From assembly GCA_951406725.2 (NCBI GenBank), contig OX597821.1, positions 24,056,001-24,120,000 on the forward strand: 64,000 bases of DNA, given 5' to 3'. This document shows, one piece after another, positions 5,595-52,405 of this stretch. Position numbers and translations under genes: made by a program. A model generated the notes under the pieces. The model saw only the letters and a program-made list of their open reading frames with translations. It ran no database searches and was not told where the DNA came from. The stretch comes from Octopus vulgaris (lineage: Eukaryota). Each line of letters begins with the position of its first letter. Position 1 is the stretch's first letter.

Positions 5595-6470
5595 TATATG
5601 TAGTGTTATACGACCGTACGTAAGGAGGTTGGTGACAAATGTCTCCTTTTGTACGCCGCACGGTCGCATCCTAACATAAGTATATAAGAGAAGCCATACT
5701 ACATGGATATATAAAATACAGTACCAAAAAATATAATGAAGGACAACAAACCGTTCCACTGTTTGAGAGAGAAGAGATAGCTTTATTTACAATGTATAAA
5801 GTGAGAGTGTTGTGAGTGCTAGCAAGGTGGAGCGAATGTGAGCATGCATCAAATGTTTGTGTCTGTGTGCGTGCGACACGTATTTGTGTCTGTGTGTTCG
5901 TGTATGTGACAGAAGGTACAGACAAAGGTGTATGCACATGAAACAGAAATACAGAATACAGAGCATAAGATGAGTCTCAGCATAGAGAGTTATGATAGAG
6001 TTTAAATTACCAGTTCATATGGTACACGATAATAAGTTCTATAACAAGATGTTGGTGTCTCGAGGCGGAGGCCGGCCGGTTGGGCTCATGTCGTGCAGCG
6101 GTTGGAGCCTCAACGCCGAGCTGAGTCTCTTGATATAGTATCTCTTTAGATGGACTGACTGTTATCCTTGGTGAAAGATTCACTCTAACAGCGTGAGTTA
6201 AACTTGGTCGGGTTGTTGACGTGTACATGCTGTTGATGGTGGAATGGCGACGATGGTGAAGACGGCGTAAAGTTGGAGTACGATGATGGTGATGATGGCG
6301 GCGGAGATAGAAAACGTTCTGTCTGTCGTCTGTCGCTGGAACTGGAACATAGCTGAGTAGCTCTGTTGGTTAGTGACTAGACCTTAAAAGGTCTGGAGTC
6401 GAAAGATGAATCTTTATTATAGGCACAATGGCCCGAATGAAGAGGGGACATAACAATACAGGACATGGGG

Positions 6471-6870
6471 TACTCTCTTTTCCTTGTTTCAGTCTTTTGA
6501 CTGTGGCCATGTTGGAGCACCGCCTTTAGTCGAGCAAATCGACCCCGGGACTTATTCTTTGTAAGCCCAGTACTTATTTTTTCGGTCTTTTTGTCGAACC
6601 GCTAAGTGACGGGGACGTAAACACACCAGCATCGGTTGTCAAGCGATGTTGGGGGGGACAAACACAGACACATAAACATATACACACACACATATATATA
6701 TATACATATATACGACAGGCTTCTTTCAGTTTCCGTCTACCAAATCCACTCACAAGGCATTGGTCGGCCCGGGGCTATAGCAGAAGACACTTGCCCAAGA
6801 TGCCACGCAGTGGGACTGAACCCGGAACCATGTGGTTAGTTAGCAAGCTACTTACCACACAGCCACTCCT
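6471..6870 (-). mobile_element. SINE family A (tRNA-like head, internal CA/TA tract, ..gactgaaacaagtaaaagag tail)
   Basis: Matches more than ten copies in this window. Confidence 0.9.
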
Positions 6871-6977
6871 AAAAATACAAAAAGGATGGTATGACAATGA
6901 AATATCTATAATGAATTAAATGGAATGACTTACGAGCCCCCCCAAAGCTCGCAGTTTCATTTACAATTACAATTGTG

Positions 6978-8350
6978 CTATCCGGGGCGTTCATCCGTAA
7001 TGTAATCGAGTAACTCCTCCTGTTCTATAACACCTGGCAAACTGTCATATGGAATGTATTGCATTACGCCTACAGCTATATTTGAATACAAATTTATTAA
7101 TTTCATTACTGTCTCTCTTTCTACAATTGCCGCCTTTATTTGGTCATCGAATATCTTCGGGTTCAGTTTTACTCTAGTTAGATTTTTTATATTCGCTAAT
7201 TTCTTCTTAATTTCTTTGTCCTTTTTGTACAACATTATAGCTTTGAGATTTCTTCCTTTTGGCCTTCGTCCTTCCTTACATATTTTCAGTTGTTCTTCCA
7301 TTTTTCTTTCCCATTCTTTCTCTTCCTCCCACATTGAAACTTCACTCACTTTCGTTTCTGTATCTCTCTCTTCGTGCATTCGATCCTCTATCTCGTCGGT
7401 AGACTTCTTTTTAGCGTTTTTCTTTTTTTTTGTGCTTTGGGTGGTGATTCCACCCGCGTTCTCTTTCTATCCTCTTTTTCTTCTGTTCTTTCCTTTTCTT
7501 TCTCCTTCACCAACTCGTCACCACTTTCCACATTATCTGTAGTCACGATTTCCTCTTCCGCTTGCAATTCCACATTCGCCTTTTGTAACTCCTCTGTCAA
7601 AGCCTCCAATGTTGTCGTCTTCTCTTGTACTTCTCTTAGCGGACACATATCCTTCATGTGACCTCTACTTTTACATTTGTAACACACTGGGGGTCTCCCC
7701 TCCACCACGACTCTGAGACGTGTCTCGTCGGGGAACACCAACTCCTCTGGGATGTTATACAGGTCTGGCATGGTTATGTGAACCAAAGCCTGCACCGCAT
7801 AACCCCACCAATTTATTTCTTTCGGCTTTTCTACCTTCAGTATGTCGACGCTCTCTTTGCAGTTGAATATTATTGCTGCTACAATTCTTTCCGTGTCCAG
7901 TTCCGGTGAAATTTTACTAATCCGTATTCTCACTGCTCTTTTTCCACAATAGTTAGGTAGTAATACCCATTTTTCGGATTTCAATACTGTCGTGGCGTTT
8001 CTCTTCGCTTCGTCTTCGTTTTCAAAACGAACGTCTACTGTCGCGTATTTTCTACCTCTATTGTAGAAGGTAGTTTTTCCTTTAATTTCCTGTAGACACT
8101 TCTCGATTTCTTCCACCTCTGCAACTTCTATTCTCTTCGAAACCACACTCCACGTTCTGTACGTTATAATTCTCTTCTCAACTTCTTTCACTTCGTCTTC
8201 AGGTGGTGTGACCCTCAGACAATCACCTTCCTTCTTGAAACTGTCGTAGTACTTCCTCAAACTCTCCTTCTCGATAACTATTTCTTCCAACTGTAGTTCG
8301 CTCGCAGCCAGGCCTTTGCCTGCTGCCCTCGCATAAGTTTGGGCTTGCAT
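6978..8350 (-). CDS. L1/Tx1-type ORF1 protein (~457 aa if one frameshift in the A-run near 7420 is corrected), CCHC zinc knuckle
   Basis: MQAQTYARAA start; RRM-like middle; VVVEGRPPVCYKCKSRGHMKDMCP knuckle; charged tail continues in ORF 6978-7379. Confidence 0.75.
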
Positions 8351-9906
8351 ACCCAACAAAAACTCCAACAATTCACCACGCCGCAACAACTTCCAACAAC
8401 AAAATCAACAAAATCCAACTCACAGCCGTAATACACAATAACCGTAATACAAAATAACCGACACAAACACTTCCACCTTTTTGAGTATCCGGTCTGGAGT
8501 CGAAAGACGAAGAATAGTGAAAGCTGGCCTTTTTATAAGGAAAAAATGGCTCAATGATGCAGGCCTTATCCGAAGGCTGTGATTGGCTGGCTTTACACAG
8601 TGGCGCGAAATAAGTAGAGAAACAAACCGCGCCACATGCCAACCAATCAGATCAGTGGACACAACAGGGACAAACCATCCAAAGATGACTGTAATCTCAA
8701 ACGAGATCATTCTTATTGTGTTTCTCAAACAGTGAGGATATCAAATATGCTACATATGTCTAAAGAAAGAAAGAACTACAAAAGTTTATATTTTTGAATT
8801 CTCCAAAAGAATGTCGTTTGCGGTTTTATGTGCGCGTGCGCACACACACACATACACACACACCAGTCCATCCTGCGATTATGACTGTCGGTTTACGTAT
8901 CTACCTTCTCCATCGCCACCCTTCCTCTTCGGCATGTGTCTTCAGTGTGTTTAAATTTGGTTGCTGCTTATCTCTAACTTGAATTTCTGTAACGATGTGT
9001 TTGCTCCATGCTGGCCTTATAAGCTGCATCTACCGGTTGCAGCTGTAAGTGTGACGTCATGCATTACCAAATACTGAAACATACATAAAAAATAGAATGA
9101 AGGAATACCAAGTCATACCCATGTAACTTACACACATACACACACACACACATACATTAATAACGAACAATGAGGACGAGTGCTCAACACCGCCTTGGTA
9201 GACAAAAATTCTTTATTTATGGGTTAAGGCTACCATTGGTTTCATGTTAAAATCAAAGTTGGAATACATGGATGTGTAAATGAAAACTATAAGCATTTCG
9301 TGATTCTGCTCGTAAATAAGAACTATCAAATTGCTCAGTGCCATCAAGAAACCTCTTGAATAAGTACTGAAAATTTTCATGAAAAAAATATAGAGTAACG
9401 TATGAACAAAGCGATGGGTTAAGTTTGAAGTACCAGTCAATTTGATCTTCACAATAAATCTGATTCCCCTCTCAGTAAAGAACCATGCCATCAGTAAATG
9501 CTTAGTTGTTTTTAAAAGTGCTTTACAATAAAGACACTATTTTCACACACAAACTGCGATTTGGCAGAGTTAATTGTAAGAACGTAGGGGGGTAATGCCT
9601 TGCAGTATTTATTCCGGCTCTTTGTGTGTTGAATTATATTTCCTCGGGGTAAACTTTGCTTTCATTCGTCCAAGGTCGATAGAATAAAGTACTAGGAGCG
9701 ATAATATTGACGAACCATTGCCTTCCAAATTGTTGGTCTTGTGCCTAAATTAGAAACAATTATGTTCATACGCACATTTGATAAGTGTACATATTATTAA
9801 CTCGAAACTTTATATTCTTGAGTCACTGTAGCAACTCAGAAATTTAATATATATATATATGTAACAAATGTTGTTCTTTGGTCCAGGAGTCACCAAAATG
9901 TAACTA

Positions 9907-12880: not shown

Positions 12881-13669
12881 ACTCTTTTATTCTTCTAGTT
12901 GTTTCAGTCATTTGACTGCGACCGTGCAGAAGCACTGCCTTTAGTCGAAGAAATCAACCCCAGGACTTATTCTCTGTAAGCCTAGTACTTATTCTATCGG
13001 TCTCTTTTGCCGAACCGTTAAGTTACGGGATCGTAAACACACCAACATCAGTTGTCAAGCAATGGTGGAAGGACAAACACACACGCGCGCACGTACATAT
13101 ATATACATATAGATACATACACATAAATATATACACATAAATATTATACGCATAAATATATGCATGAAGGCGCGTGGCTCAGTGGTTAGAGCGTCGAGCT
13201 TACGATCGTGAGGTTGTGAGCTCGAATCCCGGACCGGGCTGCGTGTTGTGTTCTTGAGCAAGACACTTTATTTCACGTTGCTCCAGTTCACTCAGCTGTA
13301 GAAATGAGTTGCGACGTCACGGGTGCCAAGCTGTATTGGCCCTTTTGCCTTTCCCTTGGATAACATTGATGGAGAGGGGAGGCTGGTATGCATGGGCGAC
13401 TGCTGGTCTTCCATGAAACAACCTTGCCCAGACTTGTGCCTCAGAGAGTAACTCTCTAGGTGCAAACCCATGGTCAGTGTCTGACCGAAGGGGGTCACTA
13501 ACTAACTAAATATATGCATGTATATATACAACGGGCTTCTTTTAGCTTCCATCTACCAAATCCACTCGAAAGACTTTGATCGGCCCGAAGTTATAGAGGA
13601 AGACACTTTCCCAAGGCGCCACGCAGTGGGACTGAACCCGGAACCATGTGACTGGGAAGCAAGCTTCTT
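12881..13669 (-). mobile_element. SINE family A, host of two nested insertions; head remainder at 16196-16217
   Basis: The consensus resumes after the inserts. Confidence 0.8.
13167..13506 (+). mobile_element. SINE family C (tRNA-derived head, (CTAA)n tail), nested
   Basis: 14-bp TSD taaatatatgcatg (13153-13166, 13507-13520); ggctcagtggttagagc A-box and tcgaatccc B-box. Confidence 0.9.
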
Positions 13670-13963
13670 TATTTTATTAAATTTGCTATAAAGGCAGTAC
13701 ATAGGGTAAGGAAGCTTGCGCGCTGGACACAGATATTAATGAGATGAATGATACAAGGATGATAAGGATGGGAGAGGACGAAAAGCGCCTGCTGACTTTT
13801 GCTTCTCTAAAACATCGTTCTTTTAAAGTATCATACCGAGGCAATAGTTAAAAAAAAACACACACACATTAATGAGACAATAAACCTCTTACATTTTTGC
13901 TATACAAAAACCCTTTTGAGGCAATAAACCTCTCACACAATTCAATAAAATACAAAAAATACA

Positions 13964-14169
13964 GTTACTCTTTTACTTGTTTCAGTCATTTGACTGCGGC
14001 CATGCTGGAGCACCGCCTTTTTTAATCGAGCAACTGATTCTTATGTAAGCCCAGTACTTATTCTATCGGTCTCTTTTGCCGAACCGCTAAGTAATGGGGA
14101 CGTAAACACACCAGCATCGGTTGTCAAGCAATGCTAGGGGGACAAACAACAGACACACAAACACACCCA

Positions 14170-14229
<60 letters not shown>

Positions 14230-14396
14230 TACGACGGGCTTCTTTCAGTTTCCGTCTACCAAATCCACTCACAAGGCTTTGGTCGGCCCGAGGCTATAGT
14301 AGAAGACACTTGCCCAAGGTGCCACGCAGTGGGACTGAACCCGGAACCATGTGGTTGGTAAACAAGCTACTTACCACACAGCCACTCCTACGCCTA
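13964..14396 (-). mobile_element. SINE family A inserted in the 3' UTR of the ORF1-only element
   Basis: Multicopy match. Confidence 0.9.
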
Positions 14397-14402
14397 TACA
14401 AG

Positions 14403-15595
14403 TTACATGCTTTTCTGTCCGACCAGGCTCCTCGCTTCTTCGAAGCATCTAGAAGGTTCCAAGCCAGACAACTTTGTCATGTATCTAAAGGAGTCCGCTG
14501 GAAAGGAATTCATTATCCTGCACAGATCGGTTTCCCATATGACCTCTGCAACCACCTGCAAAGGCCACTCAGGGTTCTCCGTGCAGGACAGAAGCCCCTC
14601 CCATTGTCCTCTCCTTTCAAACTTCTTAACAAAGTCTTGTAATGTCCCTCCCTTATGGAGGAGGACCACAAATTGCTCCTCCAATGGAACTACTCCCACC
14701 GAAGGAGATACGGGACACGCCGGCAGTGTCACAAACCTCCGGCAATGTCTCGCTTTTCTATTTTTTCTTCTTTTTCCTTTGAACCACGGGAAGGTGGTGT
14801 ACCTCTGCTTTGTCCAGCAGGTCCTCCCTTCCTCCCGCAGCCTTCGGATCCTTCTGTGGGTAACCACTGTTGCCCACCTTTCGTTTCTTTCCTTTTTTCG
14901 AGGAGGTTTCCACTTCCTCGACTTCCTCCCTCTCTTCCTCCACTGAGGGAGCAGGGAGCGGTATTTTGATTAACTGCTCCAGGACCCTATTTTTGTCCTT
15001 CGGGCAGTTCTTTCTTATATATCCCGGCTCCAGGCACAAGTGACACTTGTGGGGGGATGGGGGGGGGGCGTCCCTCAAGCATCACCGGATACCTAGACCC
15101 GGCCATTCTTAAAAAAAATCTGGAAATACCAGATTTTCGGCTGATTGGGTCCATAGGGTCAAAACAGCTTTTGACCCCTCCCAATCAACCGCAGGCAAAA
15201 TTTTCACATCGAATAGCTTGATACTGCTGCCACCCAGACCCCGGCGGATAGTGTCTTCTATCCATTCGGGCTCAATTCCGGGTGGCAAACCGCAGACCCA
15301 AGCCCTCAACTTCTTCCCTCAATAAGTGGGAAGGAACAAAATTTCACTGCTCTCCAGGGGCTGGCTTGCGAATTCGCAAACTTCTTCGGGGAGTCAAACA
15401 GCAACCACACCGTTGCAAATTTGTCTCCCCGAGAGATATAAGTAACAGCTGGCATATAGTCTGCCAGCTCTTTTTCAGTTATCTTTTTCGGGAAGACTTG
15501 GAGTAAGTCCTCAACACCACCGTCTTCCTTTCAAACTCCTCAAGCCATGTTTTGAGAGGTGTCAACTCCCATTCAACAAATTTGTTCTTTGCCAT
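14403..15595 (-). pseudogene. L1/Tx1-type ORF1 remnant with CCHC knuckle
   Basis: MAKNKFVEW..., RAWVCGLPPGIEPEWI, YPVMLEGRPP, KCHLCLEPGYIRKNCP; same motif order as the ORF1 at 6978-8350. Confidence 0.75.
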
Positions 15596-16214
15596 TTAAA
15601 AATAAAAGTTCCAAATATAGTCCACAAAATTTTTAAATTGATGTAGAGAGAAAAACAAAAGGAAAGACTTAACAAAAAGGAAACAAAAAATAAAAATAAC
15701 AGTTCAATACAGTTTTTTTTCTCCAAATAAACGACAGAAGAAGAGAACGAGATTTCAAATTACAGCAAAGAAAAATATTTTTCGGCCGTACGGTACCCCT
15801 GGCCTTCGCAGCTTTTTCAATCCTTGTGTAAACCCTTGTGTAATTCCTTAAAACTATTTTCCAAAAACTTCCACGCAGGCAAACAAACAGTTCTTGAAAA
15901 TAGTTGAGAATAATTCAACTCTCAAATTAAATTAAAACGCACCTCCAGACTTCAGTTCTCACAGCTAATTGAGAGAAACACACGTCTCTACTGCAGGCAG
16001 ACCAAAAGCCCCGAATCCAGTGAGGACTCCTTGCTTGTACAAAAAATAAACTTTGCGAACAACGAATCCCACTGGACTCAAAAAGCAAAAAAGTCTTACC
16101 TTACAGTAGAGCGTCTTTCAAATACAACTTCCGTCCGCTGCACGCCAGCATGACGACTTCAACGGTGTCAAGAAGAGAACTAAACAACCGGAACCGGAAG
16201 CAAGCTTCTTACCA

Positions 16215-17292: not shown

Positions 17293-18339
17293 AGGATCTT
17301 TTCTTTTTGATGGACGGAATTTTCTAGTTAACTAAAAAATTTGAAACTTCGTATACTGGTAGAATGTGTCAAAAGAAAACATTATTGTAAACAAAATTGA
17401 AAACAAAATTGTAATTCGTAACTTTAACGTAGTTTTATTCTTCGAATTTTAACCAATGAAATCGCAGCATCTTCGAATTTTAACCAATGAAATCCGAGCA
17501 TTTGAGCTCAAATCATTTGCTGCGTAATCGATTTTGATAAACAATCATAGCAGACGCACGTCACACACACACACACACACAAACTCTCTCTGTCTGTCTG
17601 TTTGTCTCTCTCTCTCTCTCTCTCAAACACATGCATATACATTTGCACAAGCACATAGTAATTTATATATAAGCGTACACACACATACAAACGGAGATAT
17701 ACATACACACACATACGCACACAAGACTACATACACGTTTGTGTTTTGCCCCTTGCCGCAACAAATTTGCACAAAAGGTAAATAAACCAGAAGGAGTGGG
17801 GGTCAATGTTTCATCGTTTCGGGGTCAATAAATTAAGTACCAATTACGCACTGGTGTCGAGGATTTTTTCCCAAATTTATATCACAGCTTCCGATAAGCT
17901 GGGGCATTCTTTTATGAAAAAATATTTCGCAAATTTTTACTTCTGGCCCTTGAAAACCATGGGAGAACACTTTTCTGTAAAAAAAAAATAAAGAAAATAT
18001 TCAAAAAATATCGTTAATATTTTTATTGGGCGACGAAATTCATCGATTTAAGAGATATAGCTGTTATTTCTAGCACATGTAGAATACAGAAGACAGAAGA
18101 GAGAAAGGATGAATAAGACGTGTGTGTGTGAGTTTTTAGACGCAGCAAATGGTTTGAGCTCGAATGCTAGGATTTCATTGGTTAAAATTCGAAGAATAAA
18201 ACAACGTTAAAGTTACGAATTACAATTTTGTTTTCAATTTTGTTTACAATAATGTTTTCTTTTGACACATTCTACCAGTATACGAAGTTTCAAATTGTTT
18301 AGTTAACTAGAAAATTCCGTCCATCAAAAAGAAAAGATC

Positions 18340-18341
<2 letters not shown>
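17293..18341. mobile_element. Non-autonomous DNA transposon with ~200-bp TIRs (GGATC.. / ..GATCCC)
   Basis: 17293-17525 is close to the reverse complement of 18140-18341; the left arm has a ~31-bp internal tandem duplication. Superfamily not determined. Confidence 0.85.
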
Positions 18342-18375
<34 letters not shown>

Positions 18376-18390
18376 AAGATCCCATATATA

Positions 18391-21300
18391 GAGAGTTGGC
18401 TTGCCGAAATGGCACATTGCTTCCCTTTCTTTATCCTTACCGAGACTCACCTGAACAACACCCATATGGACGCAGAGGTGAAAATAAAAGATTACACCAT
18501 TGTTCGTGCGGATCGCACAGACCGAAATAAGGGAGGGACAGCCATCTTTATCCATGACTCCTTTTCACTTGATGCCAAGGACATATTTTCCAATGGCTAC
18601 TGTGAATCGGTATCACTATACAACAAAGCCAAGGACATAACCATTGTTGGTCTTTACAGGCCTCCCCAGGCACCTCTAAAGTACTTTGAAGAGTGCCTTA
18701 GCAAAGTCAAGTCCTTCCTTCGGAAGTACCACTCCGGAAACATACTAGTGATGGGTGATTTTAACCTCCCTCATGTGAACTGGCCCACAAATACTCTGAA
18801 GTTAGGCAAGTGCTCTACATCAGAGAGAGCAGCAGCAGAACTGCTCTTTAATCTGATGGATGAGTATTTCCTGACTCAGCTAGTGCTTGAACCAACGAGA
18901 CAGAATAAAACGATCTTGGATCTGGTATTGACCAATCACTCTAGCTACGTTCACAGTATTTCAGTCGAAAAAACTCTCCTCTCAGACCACGACATGGTAC
19001 TCTGCAATCTTAATTCCCGACATATAAAAACCAAACCAGCCAATCCCATTCCATGGCACCCATTTGACAACATAAACTTCCACAAAGCGGACTGGGGAAC
19101 AATCAGAAAGGATCTGTCTTCCATCGACTGGTCTTTTACTCTCAATTCCTCTCATATTGAGACCGCGTGGCAGCACTTTGAAAACATTGTCACCTATACA
19201 TGCTCTAAACACGCTCCCAAGAAATCTACTAACACAAACAGAAACCGGCTCCCTAAAAAGAAAAAAAACACTCATCAGGCGCATCAAAAGACTCAACAAA
19301 AAATCAACCAATTAAAATATTCCCACACACAACATCCACATTCAACAACAATGAAAAGACTAGAGCTGGAAAAACTTCATCTGCAGACCAACATGAAAAC
19401 CTCCATTGAAAATCAAAGAGCTGTGGAGGAACAATGGGTAATCAAAAACATCAAACAGAACCCAAAAGTGTTCTATTCTTATGCAAATAAGCATAGAACC
19501 ACTGTCTCACCCATTGGGCCATTGATTGATGATAACGGCATTCTCCAACACGATGCTAAAGAAATGGCAGAAATACTGCAGAAACAATACTGCTCTGTCT
19601 TTAGTGTCCCCACTGATATCGACGTAAGGGAAACGAACGAAGTTGACTCCCAACACAAAATCTCAGACATAACCTTCACTGCCACCGACATCGTAGCAGC
19701 AATAAATGAGGTCAAACATTACTCTGCTGAAGGCCCTGATAGATTTCCCGCTAGTTTCCTGAAGGAATGTAGATACCAACTTGCAGTCCCTCTGACCAAC
19801 CTCTGGAGAAATTCGTTAGACGCAGGTTATATACCGAAACAGTTTCTATCCCAGTCGGTCATCCCGGTTTTCAAACAGGGAAACAGATCCCTCGCAGTCA
19901 ACTATCGCCCAATCTCACTCACCTCCCACATCATTAAAGTGTTTGAAAGAGTGTTAAGATCAAGGATAGCTGACTTCCTGGAGACCCACAAACTCCTAAA
20001 TGCAAATCAGCATGGCTTTCGCTGTGGCAGGAACTGTCTAACACAGCTCTTGCACCACATTGAAGATGTACTCAAAGCCTTGGGAACAGGTTCGAACTCT
20101 GACGTCATATATCTTGACTTCAGTAAAGCGTTCGACAGGGTAGACCATAACATCCTACTCTCAAAATTGGCAAATGTTGGAATCCGTGGAAAAGTTCTAC
20201 ACTGGATTAAGTATTTCCTGGCGAATAGAACACAACATGTTGTAGTTGATGGAGTCCACTCAAACCCAGCAAAAGTCACCAGCGGTGTTCCCCAGGGAAC
20301 TGTTTTGGGTCCGCTACTCTTCATAATTTACGTAAACGACCTTTCCAGTGTCGTACATTACTGCAAAGTGAAAATATTTGCTGATGACACTAAGCTCCAG
20401 CAAATTGTCAATGAAGAAGCAGACCGAACTCAACTCCAGTCTGATCTATATGCTGTGAGTCAATGGGCAGACAGAAACAAAATGCAACTGAATGAGGGAA
20501 AATTTGAGCTGATGCATTTTGGAAGAAATTCCTCACTAAAACAACCATACTCTCTTCCTTCAGGGGAACCGCTCACAGCCTCTAACAATATCAGAGACTT
20601 GGGTGTAATTGTTGATGACGATCTCAGTTGGAGTGCACACATCAACAAGAAGGTCGATATAGCTCGTAGGATGAGTTCCTGGATCTTAAGAACTTTCCGG
20701 TCCAGAGAACAAGGTGTCATCATACCACTTTTTTCCTCCTTTGTACGGCCACACCTTGAATACTGCTGCCCATTGTGGTCTCCTCACGCAAGACAAAACA
20801 TCTCCAGAATTGAGTCACCCCAGAGGGCACTCACTAAACAAATTGAAGGCATGGCTGCTCTCGATTATTGGGATCGCCTTAAAGCCTTGAAACTTTACTC
20901 CCTCCAGCGTCGCCGTGAGCGGTACATCATTTGTACGATGTGGAAAATATACCGCCAACTTTGCCCAAACGACCTAAACATTAGCTTCAAGGTTCATCCA
21001 AGACTTGGACCACGGGCTATACGTCCCCTGCCCAATTCAAGATCACAACATACATGTACACTGCAACATAATTTCTTTTCCTCAACAGGCCCTGCCCTAT
21101 TTAACATTGTCCCGAGGGAGATCAAAGAGAAAAAGGATCCCATCAACTTTAAACAGAGTCTGGATAGATTCCTTCAAAGAATACCAGATAAGCCACCCAT
21201 AATTGGATACAACTCACCCAACAAGAACTCACTACTTGAACAAAACTGGATACAACTCACCCAACAAGAACTCACTACTTGAACAAAACTTGACTTAAAC

Positions 21301-22373: not shown

Positions 22374-23648
22374 ACGAAACGGACGGAATCGCCCGTCGTC
22401 GCTCGCCCGAACGGCCTACAAGTTCGCCACGGAACCCAAAGAGGAGAGAGGAGAGGAGAGATACAACAACAACCACAACCGCAACAGAGATACAGAGGCA
22501 CAACCCGAGATACAACCCAAAGAGGCAAGGCAACAACTGGCAACACTGGCTTATATTCAAACAACAGTTTATACGACAATCAATTGCTACACATCAAATA
22601 CATTTAAGGCAAACAACAAATCAATACATTATACGGTATACCACAGATCAAAGCATTTAACAACATGCATGTAACAATATAACAGTGTTCAGTAACGACA
22701 CAACAAGTCCAGATCAAATAATGTTCACGATACGTCACAGTCCAATCAGAACACTTCGATACATTATACAATGTTCGTATCACAACAATTCACGTTACAA
22801 TTCAACAAGTCCTTTACTCAATTCACAATGTTCTTTATCGACTACATCGACAGAGTCCTTCTTTTTCTCTCTTCTTTCTCTTCTTTTACAGTCTCTTTAC
22901 CTCGTGACACATATCAATGCACAACACATACCTTAATTCCTAACTGAATCGCCAGTGTCCCATTCTGCACTCATCTCTTAATACTGCTAAATCCTCTGAA
23001 TACTCTGCTAATTCCCCTCTGTGCATATTCCAATCGCTTGCTCCTAGGCCTCCTCGCATCCCAGCTCGCTCCCAGGAATTCCAACGCTTGCTCCCTAAAT
23101 CCAAGGTTCCATCCACTCGCTCTGACCTCCAGAGTCCGTCTCTCTTCTTCGACGACCAGCCACGAACTCCAAGATCCGTCTGTGTTCTTCGACGACCGCT
23201 CAACGACTCCCCAGACCTCACTTCGTCTCTGTCCTTCTTCCACTCCCTCATCTCCCTCTGTACCGCTCACACCCTCTCTAACTGCCCTGGTCCTTATACT
23301 CTATCTATATCCTCAATCTGTCCCTTACTGCTTATCCTTTCTATTTGCCCTCTGATTCCTTACTCTATCTATATCGCCTGCTGTCTCTTAGCCTCTCCAT
23401 CCGTCCCTTTAGCCTTATACTCTATCTCTATTTGCTCTCAGCCCTTAATCTGTCTTCCTCTTTACTTCTTCAAGGGGTGCTCAGAATGACCTCCAATCGA
23501 CCGCACAAGGTCAGAAAGGTCTCATTAATCTCCCACTAGACAAAGGACCCGTCACTTTTCACCAGACATACTGGAACCATTATTCCTATGTGGGTCACCA
23601 GAAACACTACACTAATTAAACCCGAAATGCACTTAGCCAACCGTAACA
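22370..23648 (-). repeat. 3' LTR
   Basis: About six differences from 25637-26916, by eye. Confidence 0.95.
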
Positions 23649-25636: not shown

Positions 25637-26916
25637 TGTTACGAAACGGACGGAAATCGCCCGTCGTCGCTCGCCCGAACGGCCTACAAGTTCGCCACGG
25701 AAACCAAAGAGGAGAGAGGAGAGGAGAGATACAACAACAACCACAACCGCAACAGAGATACAGAGGCACAACCCGAGATACAACCCAAAGAGGCAAGGCA
25801 ACAACTGGCAACACTGGCTTATATTCAAACAACAGTTTATACGACAATCAATTGCTACACATCAAATACATTTAAGGCAAACAACAAATCAATACATTAT
25901 ACGGTATACCACAGATCAAAGCATTTAACAACATGCATGTAACAATATAACAGTGTTCAGTAACGACACAACAAGTTCAGATCAAATAATGTTCACGATA
26001 CGTCACAGTCCAATCAGAACACTTCGATACATTATACAATGTTCGTATCACAACAATTCACGTTACAATTCAACAAGTCCTTTACTCAATTCACAATGTT
26101 CTTTATCGACTACATCGACAGAGTCCTTCTTTTTCTCTCTTCTTTCTCTTTTTTTACAGTCTCTTTACCTCGTGACACATATCAATGCACAACACATACC
26201 TTAATTCCTAACTGAATCGCCAGTGTCCCATTCTGCACTCATCTCTTAATACTGCTAAATCCTCTGAATACTCTGCTAATTCCCCTCTGTGCATATTCCA
26301 ATCGCTTGCTCCTAGGCCTCCTCGCATCCCAGCTCGCTCCCAGGAATTCCAACGCTTGCTCCCTAAATCCAAGGTTCCATCCACTCGCTCTGACCTCCAG
26401 AGTCCGTCTCTCTTCTTCGACGACCAGCCACGAACTCCAAGATCCGTCTGTGTTCTTCGACGACCGCTCAACGACTCCCCAGACCTCACTTCGTCTCTGT
26501 CCTTCTTCCACTCCCTCATCTCCCTCTGTACCGCTCACACCCTCTCTAACTGCCCTGGTCCTTATACTCTATCTATATCCTCAATCTGTCCCTTACTGCT
26601 TATCCTTTCTATTTGCCCTCTGATTCCTTACTCTATCTATATCGCCTGCTGTCTCTTAGCCTCTCCATCCGTCCCTTTAGCCTTATACTCTATCTCTATT
26701 TGCTCTCAGCCCTTAATCTATCTTCCTCTTTACTTCTACAAGGGGTGCTCAGAATGACCTCCAATCGACCGCACAAGGTCAGAAAGGTCTCATTAATCTC
26801 CCACTAGACAAAGGACCCGTCACTTTTCACCAGACATACTGGAACCATTATTCCTATGTGGGTCACCAGAAACACTACACTAATTAAACCCGAAATGCAC
26901 TTAGCCAACCGTAACA
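25637..26916 (-). repeat. 5' LTR
   Basis: Direct repeat of 22370-23648. Confidence 0.95.
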
Positions 26917-27240: not shown

Positions 27241-28505
27241 TATCAGATCATCCCATAAGTTCTGTCCGAATTTTGAATAAAGAAGACAAGTAATCAAATG
27301 TTATATTTAATTTTAATTTAATCATCAATGTACTTTCCCCGATTATCTATGACTTCCTTCCATCTATTTACAAGCTTTTTAATCCCATCACTTTTGGTTT
27401 CAAAGTAAAGAACTCTGAAATGTTAGTTTCGACCTCCTCCTGGCTTGCGAAAGTTATGTCCCCCAAGTGATTCTGTAAGCTGGGGAACAAATGGTAGTCT
27501 GAAGGAGCAAGGTTGGGAGAATAAGGTGGATGAGGAAATTTTCCCAACCAAGCTCTTCGATCTTGTGATGTGATCTTTGTGGGATCGCGCATTGTCCTGA
27601 TGAAACATCACTCCTTTTCAATTCACTGAAGCAGGTCATTTTTCTTCAAAGCTTGGTTCAAACGCTGTAATTGCTGACAGTTGACTTGAGCATTGATTGT
27701 TGCATTAGGTGGTAACAATTCAAAGTGAATTACTCCTTTGCAATCCCACCAGATAGAGAAAAGAACTTTTTTCCCATGAAGTTCCCTTCTCTGTTGTGGT
27801 TGAGCCTTTTCCCTTTTACCAAGCCACTGTTTATGACGTTTGACATTTCGATAGAAGATTAATTTTTCGTCACTAGTTACTAGTCTATCCAAAAAGAGTG
27901 AAATGAGTTCGCGAGAATGGAGAGAAGAGCAGATGTCAACTCGGGATTTGCTGTTGCTTTTGGACAATTCATGAGGCACCCATTTTCCAAGTTTAGGAAC
28001 CTTTCCAAGTTGTTGAAGATGATGAACAGTTGTATGGTTTGAACTAAGCTTTATTGCCAATTCTTCAACCGATAATGCAGGATTTTCTTCAAGTAATGCC
28101 TCAAGGAGCTTATCATCAAACTCGACTGGACGTCCTGTTCGATCTTCATCTTCAAGGCTGAAATCTCCACTTCTGAATTTTGCAAACCATCTTCTGCAAG
28201 TTCTTTCATTCAAGCATTCTTTCCCATAAACTGAGTGTATGTTTCGAGTCGCTTCGGCTGCAGAGTTTCCTTTTTTGTACTCATAAAGTATTATGTGCCT
28301 CAAATGCTTTTTGTATACTTCTATGTTAGAAATGGTTTTAATTAAAGAAATTTTAATTCTATTAGTCTGTAAAATGATATTTAATTAGTTTAAGTGTACA
28401 GAAATGCATAAAAATAATTTTTAATTCCATTAGACATTCTAAAATACTATTAAATTTCATTCAATTCTAAAAAAGGTAAAATCGGACAGCATATGTGTGA
28501 TGTTT
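27241..28505 (-). mobile_element. Mariner (DD34D) element with disrupted transposase (~27330-28325)
   Basis: HTH, WVPHEL, VTSDEK, FHQDNARSH, HPPYSPNLAPSDYHLF. Start codon appears mutated to ATA; frameshifts; TIR core tgtccga.tttt / aaaatcggaca. Confidence 0.92.
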
Positions 28506-29546: not shown

Positions 29547-30062
29547 TCTCTTTTACTCTTTTACTTGTTTCAGTCATTTGACTGCGGCCATGCTGGAGCA
29601 CCGCCTTTAGTCGAGCAAATCGACCCCGGGACTTAATCTTTGTAAGCCTAGTACTTATTCTATCGGTCTCTTTTGCCGAACCGTTAAGTGACGGGGACGT
29701 AAACACACCAGCATCGGTTGTCAAGCAATGCTAGGGGGACAAACACAGACACACAAACACACACACACATACATTTATATACATATATACGACAGGCTTC
29801 TTTCAGTTTCCGTCTACCAAATCCATTCACAAGGCATTGGTCGGCCCGGGGTTATAGCAGAAGACACTTGCCCAAGATGCTACGCAGTGGGACTGAACCC
29901 GGAACCATGTGGTTGGTTAGCAAGCTACTGTAGCAATATTGTTTTCTTCGTGGCTATCTTCACTGTTTGAGAAACTCAAACGAGATCATTCTTAATACTT
30001 ATCTCAAACAGTGAAGGAAACAATAGTGCTACACTACTTACCACACAGCCACTCCTGCGCCT
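29547..30062 (-). mobile_element. SINE family A with nested MITE
   Basis: The consensus is interrupted at 29929-30033. Confidence 0.9.
29929..30033. mobile_element. 105-bp MITE with TGT..ACA termini and 4-bp TSD (Ginger-like)
   Basis: CTAC TSD (29925-28, 30034-37); inverted arms; related fragment at ~8695-8753. Confidence 0.75.
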
Positions 30063-35591: not shown

Positions 35592-35629
35592 GCCCATATA
35601 TATATACTTAGTTGTGATCTGAACATAAC

Positions 35630-38312
35630 CGCTTCTCACACACAGACGAAATAGTTAAAGCAAACATGGTACATGGTCCATGTGGGCGTGGATTCAACAT
35701 AAACACACCATGCTTGAAGGACAGCATATGTTCAAAAAGATTTCTAAGAAGGTTCCTACAAGAAACTCAGACAGGTGCTGATGGGTATCCATCATACAGA
35801 CGCAAAAAAACAGAAGACGGAGGTTTCACAGCAACTATCGGACAGCACGATATTGATAATAGATCGATTGTTCCATACTACCCACTCCTGTCAAAGACTT
35901 TCAATGCCCACATAAACATTGAGTTTTGCAACTCCGTTAAATCCATCAAGTACGTTTGCAAATATGTAAACAAGGGTTCTGACGCTGCATTGTTTGGACT
36001 TCAACCAGAATACTGCCAGGATGAGGTGACGCTTTCCAATTCACCAACGACACCCCGCCATTCAACAGCTTGCAGTGCACCTGGAAAATGGTCAAAGAGT
36101 GTACTTCACCGATGCTAATGCTTCTCTGTTGGCAGAGGAACCAAGGGATAGCACACTCAATGCATTCTTCAAGCTTTGTCAAGTGGATCCATTCGCTCAA
36201 ACCTTGCTGTATCTACATCCACAGATTCCATCGTACTACACTTGGAATGAAAAAAAATGGGCCCCACGGAAAGCAGGTCAAAATGTTCATGGATACCCTG
36301 GCATTAAGTTTCACACTTGCCTTGGGCGAGTATACACAGTGCATCCCACTCAACAAGAGTGCTTCTACATTCGTCTACTACTGCATGAGGCCAGAGGGCC
36401 AACGTCTTTCCAGGCCCTAAAAACCGATCATGGACATGTCTGCACAACATACAGAGAAGCCTGCTATCGACAAGGTCTGTTAGAAGATGGTGCACAATGG
36501 GATGCAACTTTAGGAGAGGCTGCTTTATCACAATCACCTAAAAGTCTCAGGGCACTATTTGCAGTATTACTACAGGCATGCGAACTGTGTGATCCGGCCA
36601 CTCTATGGCTCAAATATAGAGACAACCTGGCTGAAGACTTTCAGCGCCAAGCTCAACTGCTCTATCCTGACATGGAGGGAATCAGCAATGAAATCTATAA
36701 CAAAACACTCATTGACATTGAAGACAGAATTGCTAAACTGGGTGGAAATGAATTGTCGACGTATGGCCCGCCACAAGCATTCAGGTCAGGGTCAAATAGC
36801 CTTCCCACTGCTGTCATTCGTGAAACAACCTACGACACTCAATCGCTTTCAAATACATTGTTGAAAATGAGCCTAAATTACTTCCGGACCAACTGCAGGC
36901 CTACAGAACAATTCTTAACAGTGTACACCAACGCGAGGGACAAATCTTCTTCCTCGATGCTCCTGGAGGGACAGGAAAAACATTTATTACAAAGCTTCTC
37001 CTTGCAGAAGTTAGGTAGCATCAGGACATTGCAGTAGCTGTAGCCTCCTCTGGCATTGCAGCTACTTTGTTACCCAGTGGCAGGACAGCACACTCAACTT
37101 TTAAACTCCCTCTCAATTTAGCAGCATCCGAAATGCCTTCATGCAACATCAACAAAAGCTCAGATCAGGGACAAGTACTTAAAATGTGTCATCTAATTGT
37201 CTGGGATGAGTGCACTATGGCTCACAAGGAAGCTTTGGAAGCATTAGATAGAGCCCTGAAAGACATCTGAGACTGTCAGGCTCCAATGGGAGGTGTAACG
37301 CTTTTGTTGTCAGGTGATTTCAGGCAAACTCTTGTCATTCCGAAAGGCACTAGAGCAGATGAAGTCCAAGCATGCCTAAAGTCCTCTACCCTGTTGAATC
37401 ATGTTACAATCCTCAGTCTCACCACTAACATGAGGGCTCAGCTACACGGCGACAAAATGTCCACAAAGTTTGCACAGGACATTTTGAAGGCAAGTGAAGG
37501 CAAGATGCCTCTCGATGCTGCAGGACAAATGGAAGTGTGGTCATTTTCCTCTGTTGTTAATTCTGTAGATGACCTCAAAATCAAAGTCTTTCCCAACTTC
37601 ACGCAAAACTACCAAAATCACAATTGGCAGTGTGAAAGAGCTCCAAAAAACGTCGCTGTTAACAAAATTAATCAACAGCTAATGCATTCTCTTCCCGGCA
37701 CTATACACACTTACAAGTCTGTTGATACAATTCCAGATATAAATGAAGTTGTGAACTATCCTCCTGAATTTCTCAATTCACTGGAGCCTCCTGGACTACC
37801 TCCACACATATTAGCACTTAAAGTTGGAACTCCTGTAATGCTACTCCGCAATCTGGAACCACCAAGAGTTTGCAATGGAACACGACTGGTGATAAAGAAA
37901 ATGATGTCACATGTTATCGAGGCGATCATTCTTTCTCGACGTGGAAAAGGTGATGACGTCTTTATTCCAAGAATTCCTCTTACTCCATCAGGAACAGAAA
38001 TTCCATTTACATTCAAAAGACTGCAATTCCCGCTTCGTGTCAGCTTTGCCATGTCCATTAACAAATCTCAGGGTCAAACCCTCTCTGTAGCTGGTCTTCT
38101 GTTGGAACAGGCCTGCTTCTCGCATAGGCAACTGTATGTTGGCTGCTCAAGAGTAGGAACCAAAAGAAACCTTTTTGTATATACTCCACAAGGAAAAACA
38201 AGGAACATTGTTTACAACGAGGTGTTATAATCTCAACAGCCAGGAGGTATATACATGATCCCCTTTTTTTAACAAACTTCATGTACTTTCATGTATTTAT
38301 ATTAATATACAA

Positions 38313-50194: not shown

Positions 50195-52405
50195 GAGGCT
50201 GGAGATGCCATTATGAAAGACTGCTGAATGTGGAGAAGGAATGGGAGGAGGAGAGTCTGCCAAATTTTGACCCAACTAAGGGACCAGATATCTGAATTGA
50301 CAGTACCCTGGTAGATAAAGCAATTAGGGATATGAAGACAGGGAAAGCCCCTGGCCCATTGGGAATCACCGCTGAGATGTGGTGAGGTTTATGGTCTAGT
50401 CACCTGTATTGTAAATCAGGTGGTTCATGAAGGAGTCATGCACAATGACTGTTATAGCAGCACCATAGTCAACTGCTACAAAAGTAAAGGTGATGCCTTA
50501 GATAGAAATAATTACAGAGGTATCAAATTGTTGGAACAGGTGATGAAAGTTGTGGAGAGAGTCATAACCCAGCTAATCAAGGAGAGAGTCTAGAGGATAT
50601 GCAGTTTGGCTTTGTGCCTGGTAGAAGCACCATTGATGCTATATTTCTGGTAAGGCAACTGCAGGAGAAATACCTAACCAAAGATAAACCTCTGTACTTG
50701 GCTTTTGTTGACTTGGAGAAAGCTTTTGACAGAGTCCTCCGATCTGTTATCTGGTGGTCAATGCAGAAACTAGGGATAAACGAGTGGTTGGTGAGGGCTG
50801 CACAAGTCTTGTACAGAGACACTACCAGTAAAGTGAGGGTGGGCAACGAGTACAGTGAAGAATTCAGGGTACAAATAGGGGTTCACCAAGGATTGGTGCT
50901 CAGCCCCTTCTTGTTCATCATAGTCCTCCAAGCAATAACAAAGGAATTCAAGACAGGCTGTTCCTGGGAGCTCCTCTATGCCGTTGACCTTGCTCTTATA
51001 GCTGAGTCATTACCTGAGCTAGAGAAGAAGTTCCAGGTATAGAAACAAGGTCTAGAATCAAAAAGCCTTAGGTCATAATAAGTAGAAAGGTAAACAAATC
51101 ACAAATCCCCTCAGGTAGATGGTCTTGCTCAATCTGTACAAAAGGTGTAGGTAGAAACTTCATAAGATGCACCCAATGTAAGCTTTGGACACACAAAAGG
51201 TGCAGCAACATTAAAGGAAGGTTAATAGACAAACTAACTTTTGCCTGTGGAAGGTACACAAGCATAATAAATGCTGAACATGTGTGGAAAATAGACTCCG
51301 TCAACTGCCAGGAGGGCAAGCTAGAGGTAGTAGATAGCTTCAGGTATCTAGACAGCCAGGTTAGTAGTGGCGGTGGTTGTTCTGAGAGTGTAGTTGTGAG
51401 AATAAGATTAGTTTGGGCAAAGTTCCAAGAGCTCATACCCCTGATGGCAACAAAGGGCCTCTCTCTCAGGGCAAAAGGCAGATTGTATGATGCCCATGTG
51501 CAAACAGCTATGCTCTGAAACATGGCCTATAATAGCTGAGGACATGTGTAGGCTCGAAAGAAATGAAGCCAGTATGCTTTGCTGGATGTACAATGTCTGT
51601 GCATGTTCGACAGAGTGTAAGCATCTTGAGAGAAAAGTTAGGCATAACAGGAATCAGATGTGGTGTGCAAGAGAGACAGCTGTGCTGGTATGGTCATGTG
51701 ATGCATATGGATGAGGACAGCTGTGTAAAGAGGTGCTGATCTCAAACTGTAGAGGGCCCCTGAGGTAGAGGTAGACCCAGGAAGACATGGGACTAGGTGG
51801 CTAAGTATGACCTTCGAACTTTGAACCTCACGGAGACAATGACTAGTGACCAAGACCTTTGGCAATGTGCTCTGCTTAAGAGGACCAATCAAGCCGAGTG
51901 CACCTGTGCTGGTGGCACATATAAAAAAATCAAACTTTGAATGTTGGGCTCCATGAAGGCAAAGTGGCTGAGTTCCTTTTGAGTATTGGACCTGATGGAG
52001 GCAAAATGGCTAAGTTCCTTTAGAGTGTTGGGCCTTATGGAAGCGAGGTGGCTGAGTTCCTTTCAAGTGGGCCTCACGGAGGTGAGGTGGCTGAGGTCCT
52101 TTCGTGTATTGGGTCTCATGGAGGCAATGACCGAGACTGGCATTTAGTTGTGTTTGAAAAGAAGACCCATCAAGCCGATCAAAATTGTAGTCATAGCAGA
52201 TACCGGTGTTATGCAAATGGCACCCATGCTAGTGGCACGTAAAAGCACCTATTGCACTCTCGGAGTGTTGGCATTAGGAAGGGCATCTAAAGTAGAAAAC
52301 CATGCCAAATCAAACTGGATCCTGGTGCACCCTTCCAGCGTACCAGCCCAGTCAAACTGTCCAACCCATGCCAACATGGACAACAGACGTTAAATGATGA
52401 TGATG
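50195..52405 (+). mobile_element. RTE-clade LINE, 5'-truncated and degenerate
   Basis: QFGFVPGRSTIDAIF, FVDLEKAFDRV, GVHQG, LYAVD, FRYL, RGRPRKTW. ~40-bp tandem units in the 3' UTR (~51940-52135); (TGA)n tail. Confidence 0.9.

Follow-up and report, generated by a model that had tools for sequence, protein, structure and literature searches.

The 64,000-nt stretch of the Octopus vulgaris genome analysed here (assembly GCA_951406725.2, contig OX597821.1, positions 24,056,001-24,120,000, forward strand; hereafter the window, to which all positions refer) contains two loci that code for the first open reading frame (ORF1) of a long interspersed nuclear element (LINE) without the second (ORF2). 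We find it likely, with a probability of about 0.7, that both are non-autonomous, ORF1-only retroelements lacking long terminal repeats (LTRs) and mobilised in trans, probably by the ORF2 of an L1-Tx1 element. For the focal copy (element 1), the data support a LINE-type ORF1 without ORF2, lying within what resembles a target-site duplication (TSD). The further locus (element 2), about 5 kb away and missed in the preliminary description of the region, was found by searching the window with relatives of the ORF1 protein, and the ORF1-only reading is better supported by it than by the focal copy. A profile search of the window recovered these two ORF1 loci only.

Organisation of the two elements

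Element 1 lies on the minus strand and consists, between its repeats, of a leader, ORF1, a T-rich stretch, a nested short interspersed nuclear element (SINE) and a tail, spanning 2080 nt, or 1682 nt without the SINE. The direct repeat, a putative TSD of 21 nt, has its 5' copy at 8491..8511 (exact 17-mer 8491-8507) and its 3' copy at 6390..6410. The copies are identical at 20 of 21 positions, the first 17 matching exactly and the sole mismatch being a CpG-type C/T difference. The 17-mer occurs twice in the whole window, both times as this flanking repeat, and none of 300 Markov-shuffled 5-kb regions contained an exact 17-mer repeat other than a microsatellite. The G/T-rich leader of 140 nt (8351..8490) has no ATG and may hold an internal promoter. 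ORF1 (6978..8350, 1373 nt) runs from an ATG at 8350 to a stop at 6978 and amounts to 457 codons plus 2 nt. It is read in two overlapping frames that have no internal stop, and the frame switches at its single break, an A9-G-A5 run (7431-7417), which may be genuine or a sequencing error. Past the stop come the first part of the tail, 107 nt of T-rich (41% T) non-coding sequence (6871..6977), then a SINE of an abundant family on the same strand as ORF1 (6474..6870), and finally the last 63 nt of the tail (6411..6473), where AATAAA (6418-6413) is followed by two bases and then by the repeat. The 170 nt of non-SINE sequence past the stop hold neither a long frame nor a match to Pfam reverse transcriptase (RT) or endonuclease families. 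The preliminary description had announced a duplicated 17-mer (21 with one CpG-type mismatch), a leader of ~140 bp, an ORF1 of ~457 codons with a CCHC knuckle and a single disruption at a homopolymer, and an AATAAA tail, ~1.7 kb in total without the SINE; this anatomy is confirmed.

Element 2, on the same strand, interrupts a SINE. The 5' copy of an exact 15-nt repeat lies inside the head of that SINE (16196..16210), and the 3' copy (13655..13669) is followed by its remainder. Uninterrupted SINE heads prove that this repeat is a TSD: the homologous stretch is present once in 12 of the 13 other matches to the SINE region, the thirteenth having no head. A shared 15-mer like this one appeared in 11 of 3000 random pairs. 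Long TSDs are a trait of the L1 clade. Between the copies lie a 600-nt leader (15596..16195), a decayed ORF1 of the same family with stops and several frameshifts (14403..15595, its 3' end placed from the last open frame), a nested SINE on the same strand (13968..14395) and a T-rich tail of 298 nt without open frame (13670..13967) that runs to AATAAA (13678-13673). The nested SINE starts about ten bases past the ORF1 stop and is flanked by a TSD-like repeat whose score was reached by 3 of 500 random pairs. Because this repeat takes in the ORF1 stop codon, stop and tail would have been adjacent before the SINE arrived. The ~300 nt of non-SINE sequence past the stop again contain no long frame and no Pfam RT or endonuclease match. 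A long CA repeat precedes the element.

In both elements, a TSD with CC at its end is followed by GG as the first bases, and both stop at AATAAA; with two cases, this agreement may be due to chance. The TSD sequences differ and, with one site per lineage, reveal no shared target sequence. The leaders of the two elements do not align, nor do their tails (tail-tail similarity is not beyond P ~0.05). Two RT-bearing ORFs of the window were compared as well, and neither tail aligns with what follows them; neither tail has a stable fold (z 0.5 and 1.2). The ORF1 of element 2 shows 63% identity over 205 aa to P0084, a model from O. sinensis (P-numbers denote protein relatives of ORF1 from a database scan), whereas the protein identity between elements 1 and 2 is about 30%, as it is between P0084 and element 1 (30%). 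In a quick tree that took in 59 of 173 rows, element 1 grouped with P0002 (support 98) and element 2 with P0084 (support 100), on distant branches. These distant positions, together with the non-aligning untranslated regions, suggest that the ORF1-only build exists in two lineages. That the window holds another element of this build, and a divergent one, lowers the likelihood of a one-off accident.

The ORF1 protein and its relatives

The ORF1 protein of element 1 is predicted to comprise two domains resembling RNA recognition motifs (RRM; residues ~49-137 and 138-220), a CCHC knuckle (222-237), a charged linker and a C-terminal domain. The knuckle is its sole Pfam match (zf-CCHC, E 1.3e-4, above the Pfam cut-off). 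An AlphaFold model of residues 1-245, built from 44 sequences, has a predicted local distance difference test score of 89.9 and resembles tandem-RRM proteins (Foldseek best E 1.6e-4; VIA best Z 9.4, root-mean-square deviation (rmsd) 1.9, 75 aligned). L1 ORF1p structures are not among the fold matches listed, an absence that constitutes no evidence, and sequence searches of the PDB gave matches confined to the knuckle region. Neighbours in a language-model Atlas were unnamed CCHC clusters (0.91-0.93) and ZCCHC3-type RBD/CCHC clusters (0.91, 0.89), and carry PF23057/PF23058. The Pfam families assigned to the two frames and to the relatives do not include Transposase_22. An RRM followed by CCHC is described as defining type I ORF1, distinct from the type II of mammals (PMC5203782, PMC4120745). 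On the modelled fold, the ORF1 of element 1 is a type I LINE ORF1 (RRM-RRM-CCHC) and not one of the mammalian L1/HAL1 type.

Both frames were matched in order by 3 of the 161 relatives that match element 1 (168 searched), and we thus regard them as one gene broken at the A-run; pairwise matches of the second frame to relatives reached E 3e-15 and 2e-11. The C-terminal domain (6996..7265), ~90 aa common to the relatives and predicted to form a small alpha/beta fold, ends 0-14 residues before the end of the protein in all nine strongly matching relatives, eight of which had gone into the model, and it does so in element 1 as well. This position within 14 residues of the protein end indicates that ORF1 is complete. 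The fold matches of this domain are middling and none of them is clear (best Z 5.9, rmsd 3.5, 68 aligned), and the Atlas gave no usable match to it.

The relatives come from a scan of residues 1-245 against 1.84 billion representative proteins, with 486 matches at E≤0.001 and 144 at 1e-10. Taxon labels exist for 18 of the 30 that were looked up and name octopods without exception (Octopus bimaculoides, O. sinensis, O. vulgaris and Argonauta hians). By sequence similarity, the ORF1 of element 1 belongs to a large and diverse octopod protein family. Two other lineages have relatives on contigs of 1849-1930 nt (4 of 4) and of 1934, 1945, 1507 and 904 nt, respectively, lengths that fit a unit near 1.9 kb, the matches being at the protein level only. 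At least three long models (P0014, P0069 and P0112) contain a piece of ORF1 inside unrelated sequence, with WD40 repeats in P0014 and LDL-receptor repeats in P0069; these are likely gene models that absorbed an unmasked element. A distant lineage of the family (P0087, P0153-P0166) includes a 28-member cluster at 90% identity and lies on long contigs, like a recently amplified repeat.

Other searches returned little. A word-index protein search gave nothing at E≤0.001 with the first frame of ORF1 (3918 candidates) or with the second (38 candidates). The same held for alignment A2 against proteins of 794-2265 aa (7998 candidates), which is weak evidence on fused forms. Scanning metagenomes for loci with the window protein yielded 282 pattern matches and no confirmed locus, and scans with alignment A4 found none in metagenomes (89 pattern matches) or viral contigs (47). 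Words sampled from 6880-8490 were also searched in sequencing reads, where 24 runs were listed. Fifteen of them, from 7 studies and under 4 organism labels, contain 0.21-0.48 of the words of element 1, while five rows lie below 0.2; no RNA holder of these words was among the listed runs. The shares show that related sequence is present in several samples, many copies and one shared locus being indistinguishable by this measure.

Alternative histories and the nested SINEs

If the elements are ORF1-only retroelements, RNA polymerase II would transcribe them from the leader, and the ORF1 protein would coat its own RNA in cis through the two RRM-like domains and the knuckle. A borrowed endonuclease/reverse transcriptase would then nick the target and prime at the AATAAA end (target-primed reverse transcription), leaving a duplication of 15-21 nt; the SINE and the frameshift would have been acquired after insertion. 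An autonomous LINE would supply the helper ORF2, and it would probably belong to the L1-Tx1 group. This group is the likeliest source because type I ORF1 variants are consistent with Tx1 and L1-Tx1 families have recently been active in O. vulgaris. The RRM plus zf-CCHC variants of non-mammalian animals are described as consistent with Tx1 (PMC5203782), and 13 recently active L1-Tx1 families with 421 insertions and 2,288,644 bp are reported for this species (PMC13282606), which amounts to ~5.4 kb per insertion on average; the curated repeat library of O. vulgaris comprises 80 L1-Tx1 consensus families.

What weighs against this reading is, on the one hand, what the searches and the sequence around ORF1 failed to provide and, on the other, the nested SINEs. 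Neither element has a poly(A) at its 3' end, and the C-terminal profile gave no match in element 2. Scans of the window and of the collections revealed neither a further copy of either lineage nor a parent LINE, and no empty site that would match element 1; no listed read run reaches half of the words of element 1. An RT or endonuclease family is found in none of the 151 relatives scanned, which is weak evidence, given that ORF1 and ORF2 are separate proteins and that most matches are fragments. At the divergence of the nested SINE, an unselected ORF would remain free of stops with a probability of 0.09-0.15; the lack of stops is thus not significant, and the near-intact ORF1 shows neither youth nor selection. 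T-rich inter-ORF spacers are described in non-mammalian L1 (PMC5381506), and the 107 nt past the stop of element 1 could, by analogy, be such a spacer. Lastly, Tx1 parentage is not established, because type I ORF1 occurs in several clades, with I, Jockey, R1, Tad1, L2 and CR1 elements among those described (PMC4120745).

The nested SINEs bear on whether ORF2 was ever present. The SINE family has 17 blast matches in the window, 10 of which are near-full copies, including that of element 1 (6474-6870), which carries 2.8% private changes. This copy occupies the position expected for ORF2. It is not flanked by a TSD; 126 of 500 random pairs reach the score of its flanks. A near-full, same-strand SINE is present in the short tails of both elements, which under uniform insertion has a post hoc P of ~0.001; the two SINEs are of different SINE subtypes. 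The preliminary description took the duplication around element 1 as an indication that it had moved without ORF2. This does not follow, because a duplication marks the landing and is silent on later deletions, and the SINE without TSD stands just where ORF2 would be expected. A LINE with both ORFs may have inserted with its TSD and lost ORF2 later, the simplest route being a recombination that joined two same-strand SINEs into the one now present, and full-length L1-Tx1 elements are indeed reported from an octopus (PMC13282606). Such a SINE-linked deletion would account for the SINEs in both tails; one guess at another cause is a preference of SINEs for T-rich tails. We nevertheless consider the later loss of ORF2 unlikely. 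Nine of the ten private changes of the SINE in element 1 fall in its 3' block (Fisher P 0.023), as a recombinant might show, but the other nine copies are also biased towards the 3' side (2.9% vs 1.3%), and this test of chimaerism, once corrected for the bias, gives a non-significant P of 0.20. Among eight other SINE copies that were tested, six also have no significant flanking repeat, so that the absence of one says little. In element 2, the SINE does have a TSD-like repeat, which argues that nothing was removed there. No remnant of ORF2 was found beside either SINE, on either side.

It is also conceivable, if distinctly unlikely, that each element arose once, when a short transcript of an ordinary two-ORF LINE, ended early at a signal after ORF1 or spliced, was retrocopied, and never formed a propagating family. 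The intact 5' end and the stop at AATAAA in both elements would suit this history, as would the lack of a second copy of either, and spliced L1 insertions in humans are the subject of a published study (PMC5860796). Two such events in two distant families within 8 kb would, however, require a very high rate. The profile search, with its two ORF1 loci, gave no sign of a 5'-truncated, ORF2-bearing copy of the family in the 64 kb, and several contigs with relatives measure 1.85-1.95 kb, a fit to the unit length from protein-level matches only.

The remaining possibility, which we judge highly improbable, is that the 21-nt repeat of element 1 belongs to the element or the host and is not a TSD. 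It would then be a terminal redundancy of an LTR- or DIRS-like kind, or the mark of a retrocopied domesticated ORF1 gene, with an upstream TATA box as promoter. The host site upstream of the element (8512..8754) does contain, by eye, a TATA-like box (8538-8531) and CCAAT-like boxes. This TATA-like box is on the strand of the element, 20-40 nt upstream of the 5' repeat, and the 3' repeat is preceded by AATAAA, like an R region; CCHC knuckles are common to gag proteins, and for element 1 no empty site was found to set against this history. On the other side, the modelled fold is a tandem RRM and not a capsid, the repeat measures only 21 nt, and the repeat of element 2, unrelated to this one, has been proven to be a TSD, with no such box noted upstream. 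The flanks of element 1 lend little to the idea either: the 12-nt inverted repeat at their ends is at chance level when taken alone (181 of 200 shuffles), and their right end (8693-8754) resembles, at 79%, the end of a small inverted-repeat element (29972-30033). The flanks were also considered as a solo LTR, a reading that we rejected.

The ORF1-only reading can be extended beyond the window, although we hold the extension only tentatively and think it more doubtful than probable. In this form, the ORF1-only retroelements of octopods would make up an old, abundant and diversified clade, with many lineages diverged to as little as 25-30% protein identity and spread over Octopus and Argonauta, a complete RRM-RRM-CCHC-CTD protein (CTD, C-terminal domain) and no living parent with the same ORF1. 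The clade would parasitise the ORF2 of L1-Tx1 in trans, escape repeat masking and stand behind scores of 'uncharacterized CCHC' gene models.

The surroundings of the two elements are rich in other repeats. The host site of element 1 (5757-6389 and 8512-8754, ~0.9 kb) has AATAAA at 5786 and no second copy in the window. The small inverted-repeat element that its right end resembles (29929-30033, ~105 nt) sits in a SINE and has long inverted ends, TG...CA, and a 4-nt duplication, features that we take to be reminiscent of Ginger-type transposons. An uninterrupted frame of 991 codons with endonuclease and RT domains (18307-21279) is followed by two 44-nt tandem copies; it is possibly a young LINE, and its tail is unlike those of the ORF1-only elements. 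Long inverted arms (17294-17525 and 18140-18340), with 177 nt at 98% and another 56 nt at 95%, lie ~0.65 kb apart, as in a foldback or miniature inverted-repeat element. Two near-identical stretches 3.27 kb apart (22944-23486 and 26212-26754) flank a GC-rich minus-strand frame of 649 codons without Pfam match and have the look of LTRs. The window further includes a fragment of a mariner-type transposase (27626-28384), PIF1 helicase frames that suggest a Helitron (35618-38227) and an RT fragment (50512-51039). No Rfam or tRNA match was found anywhere in it.

Comparison with known ORF1-only retroelements

ORF1-only retroelements are already known as a kind. Kojima's list of non-autonomous LINEs in which ORF1 is present names HeT-A (Jockey), HAL1 (L1) and Ag-Sponge (CR1) (PMC5786205). 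A full-text search of the literature found no report of an ORF1-only element in cephalopods. The available part of the O. vulgaris repeat paper (PMC13282606) mentions none, and its sequence library, Repbase and Dfam, which lay outside the search, may hold the family. An expansion of CCHC families has been described in decapods (PMC13218726).

The precedent named in the preliminary description was HAL1, a dispersed, non-autonomous element with ORF1 only that is thought to use ORF2 in trans and ORF1 in cis and that arose several times (PMC5753468, PMC3627910). The octopus elements resemble it in having ORF1 without ORF2 and in their presumed use of ORF2 in trans, and the precedent holds to this extent. 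HAL1 derives, however, from mammalian L1 and has a type II ORF1 (Transposase_22; coiled coil, RRM and CTD), whereas the octopus elements have a predicted type I ORF1 with a knuckle, a different C-terminal domain, an octopod host and no poly(A). HAL1 is therefore a functional analogue only, with HeT-A and Ag-Sponge as further precedents.

HeT-A and the telomeric Jockey elements are closer in their protein, being ORF1-only with a type I product (RRM and CCHC; PMC4120745). In Drosophila, ORF1-only telomeric elements are reported to have arisen dozens of times, with repeated loss of ORF2 and ORF1-only lineages that can spawn new ones (PMC13534243). Elements of the HeT-A type form head-to-tail arrays at chromosome ends and have three knuckles. 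The octopus copies, in contrast, each lie alone at an interstitial site surrounded by SINEs and other repeats, and they have a single knuckle, short tails and long TSDs. Ag-Sponge of Anopheles, compared here by its description, is likewise an ORF1-present, bipartite non-autonomous LINE (PMC5786205), with a CR1 parent in its case. The L1-Tx1 LINEs share with the octopus elements a type I ORF1 with RRM and CCHC, a feature that is not exclusive to Tx1. They differ from the octopus elements, which have no ORF2 (so that the clade cannot be set by RT) and no shared target sequence, and for which we found no autonomous element with this ORF1.

The hosts of known ORF1-only retroelements are mammals and insects, with three LINE clades represented; a mollusc case, in which insertions are dispersed and ORF1 is of type I, would add a phylum and probably a parent clade. 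Public octopus gene sets include relatives of this ORF1 under the label of uncharacterized proteins, and the three composite models mentioned above are likely unmasked repeats. The presence of two distant lineages within 8 kb hints that the ORF1-only build is common in this genome. If so, it would offer many natural replicates for asking why ORF1 is needed in cis by such elements while SINEs manage without it.

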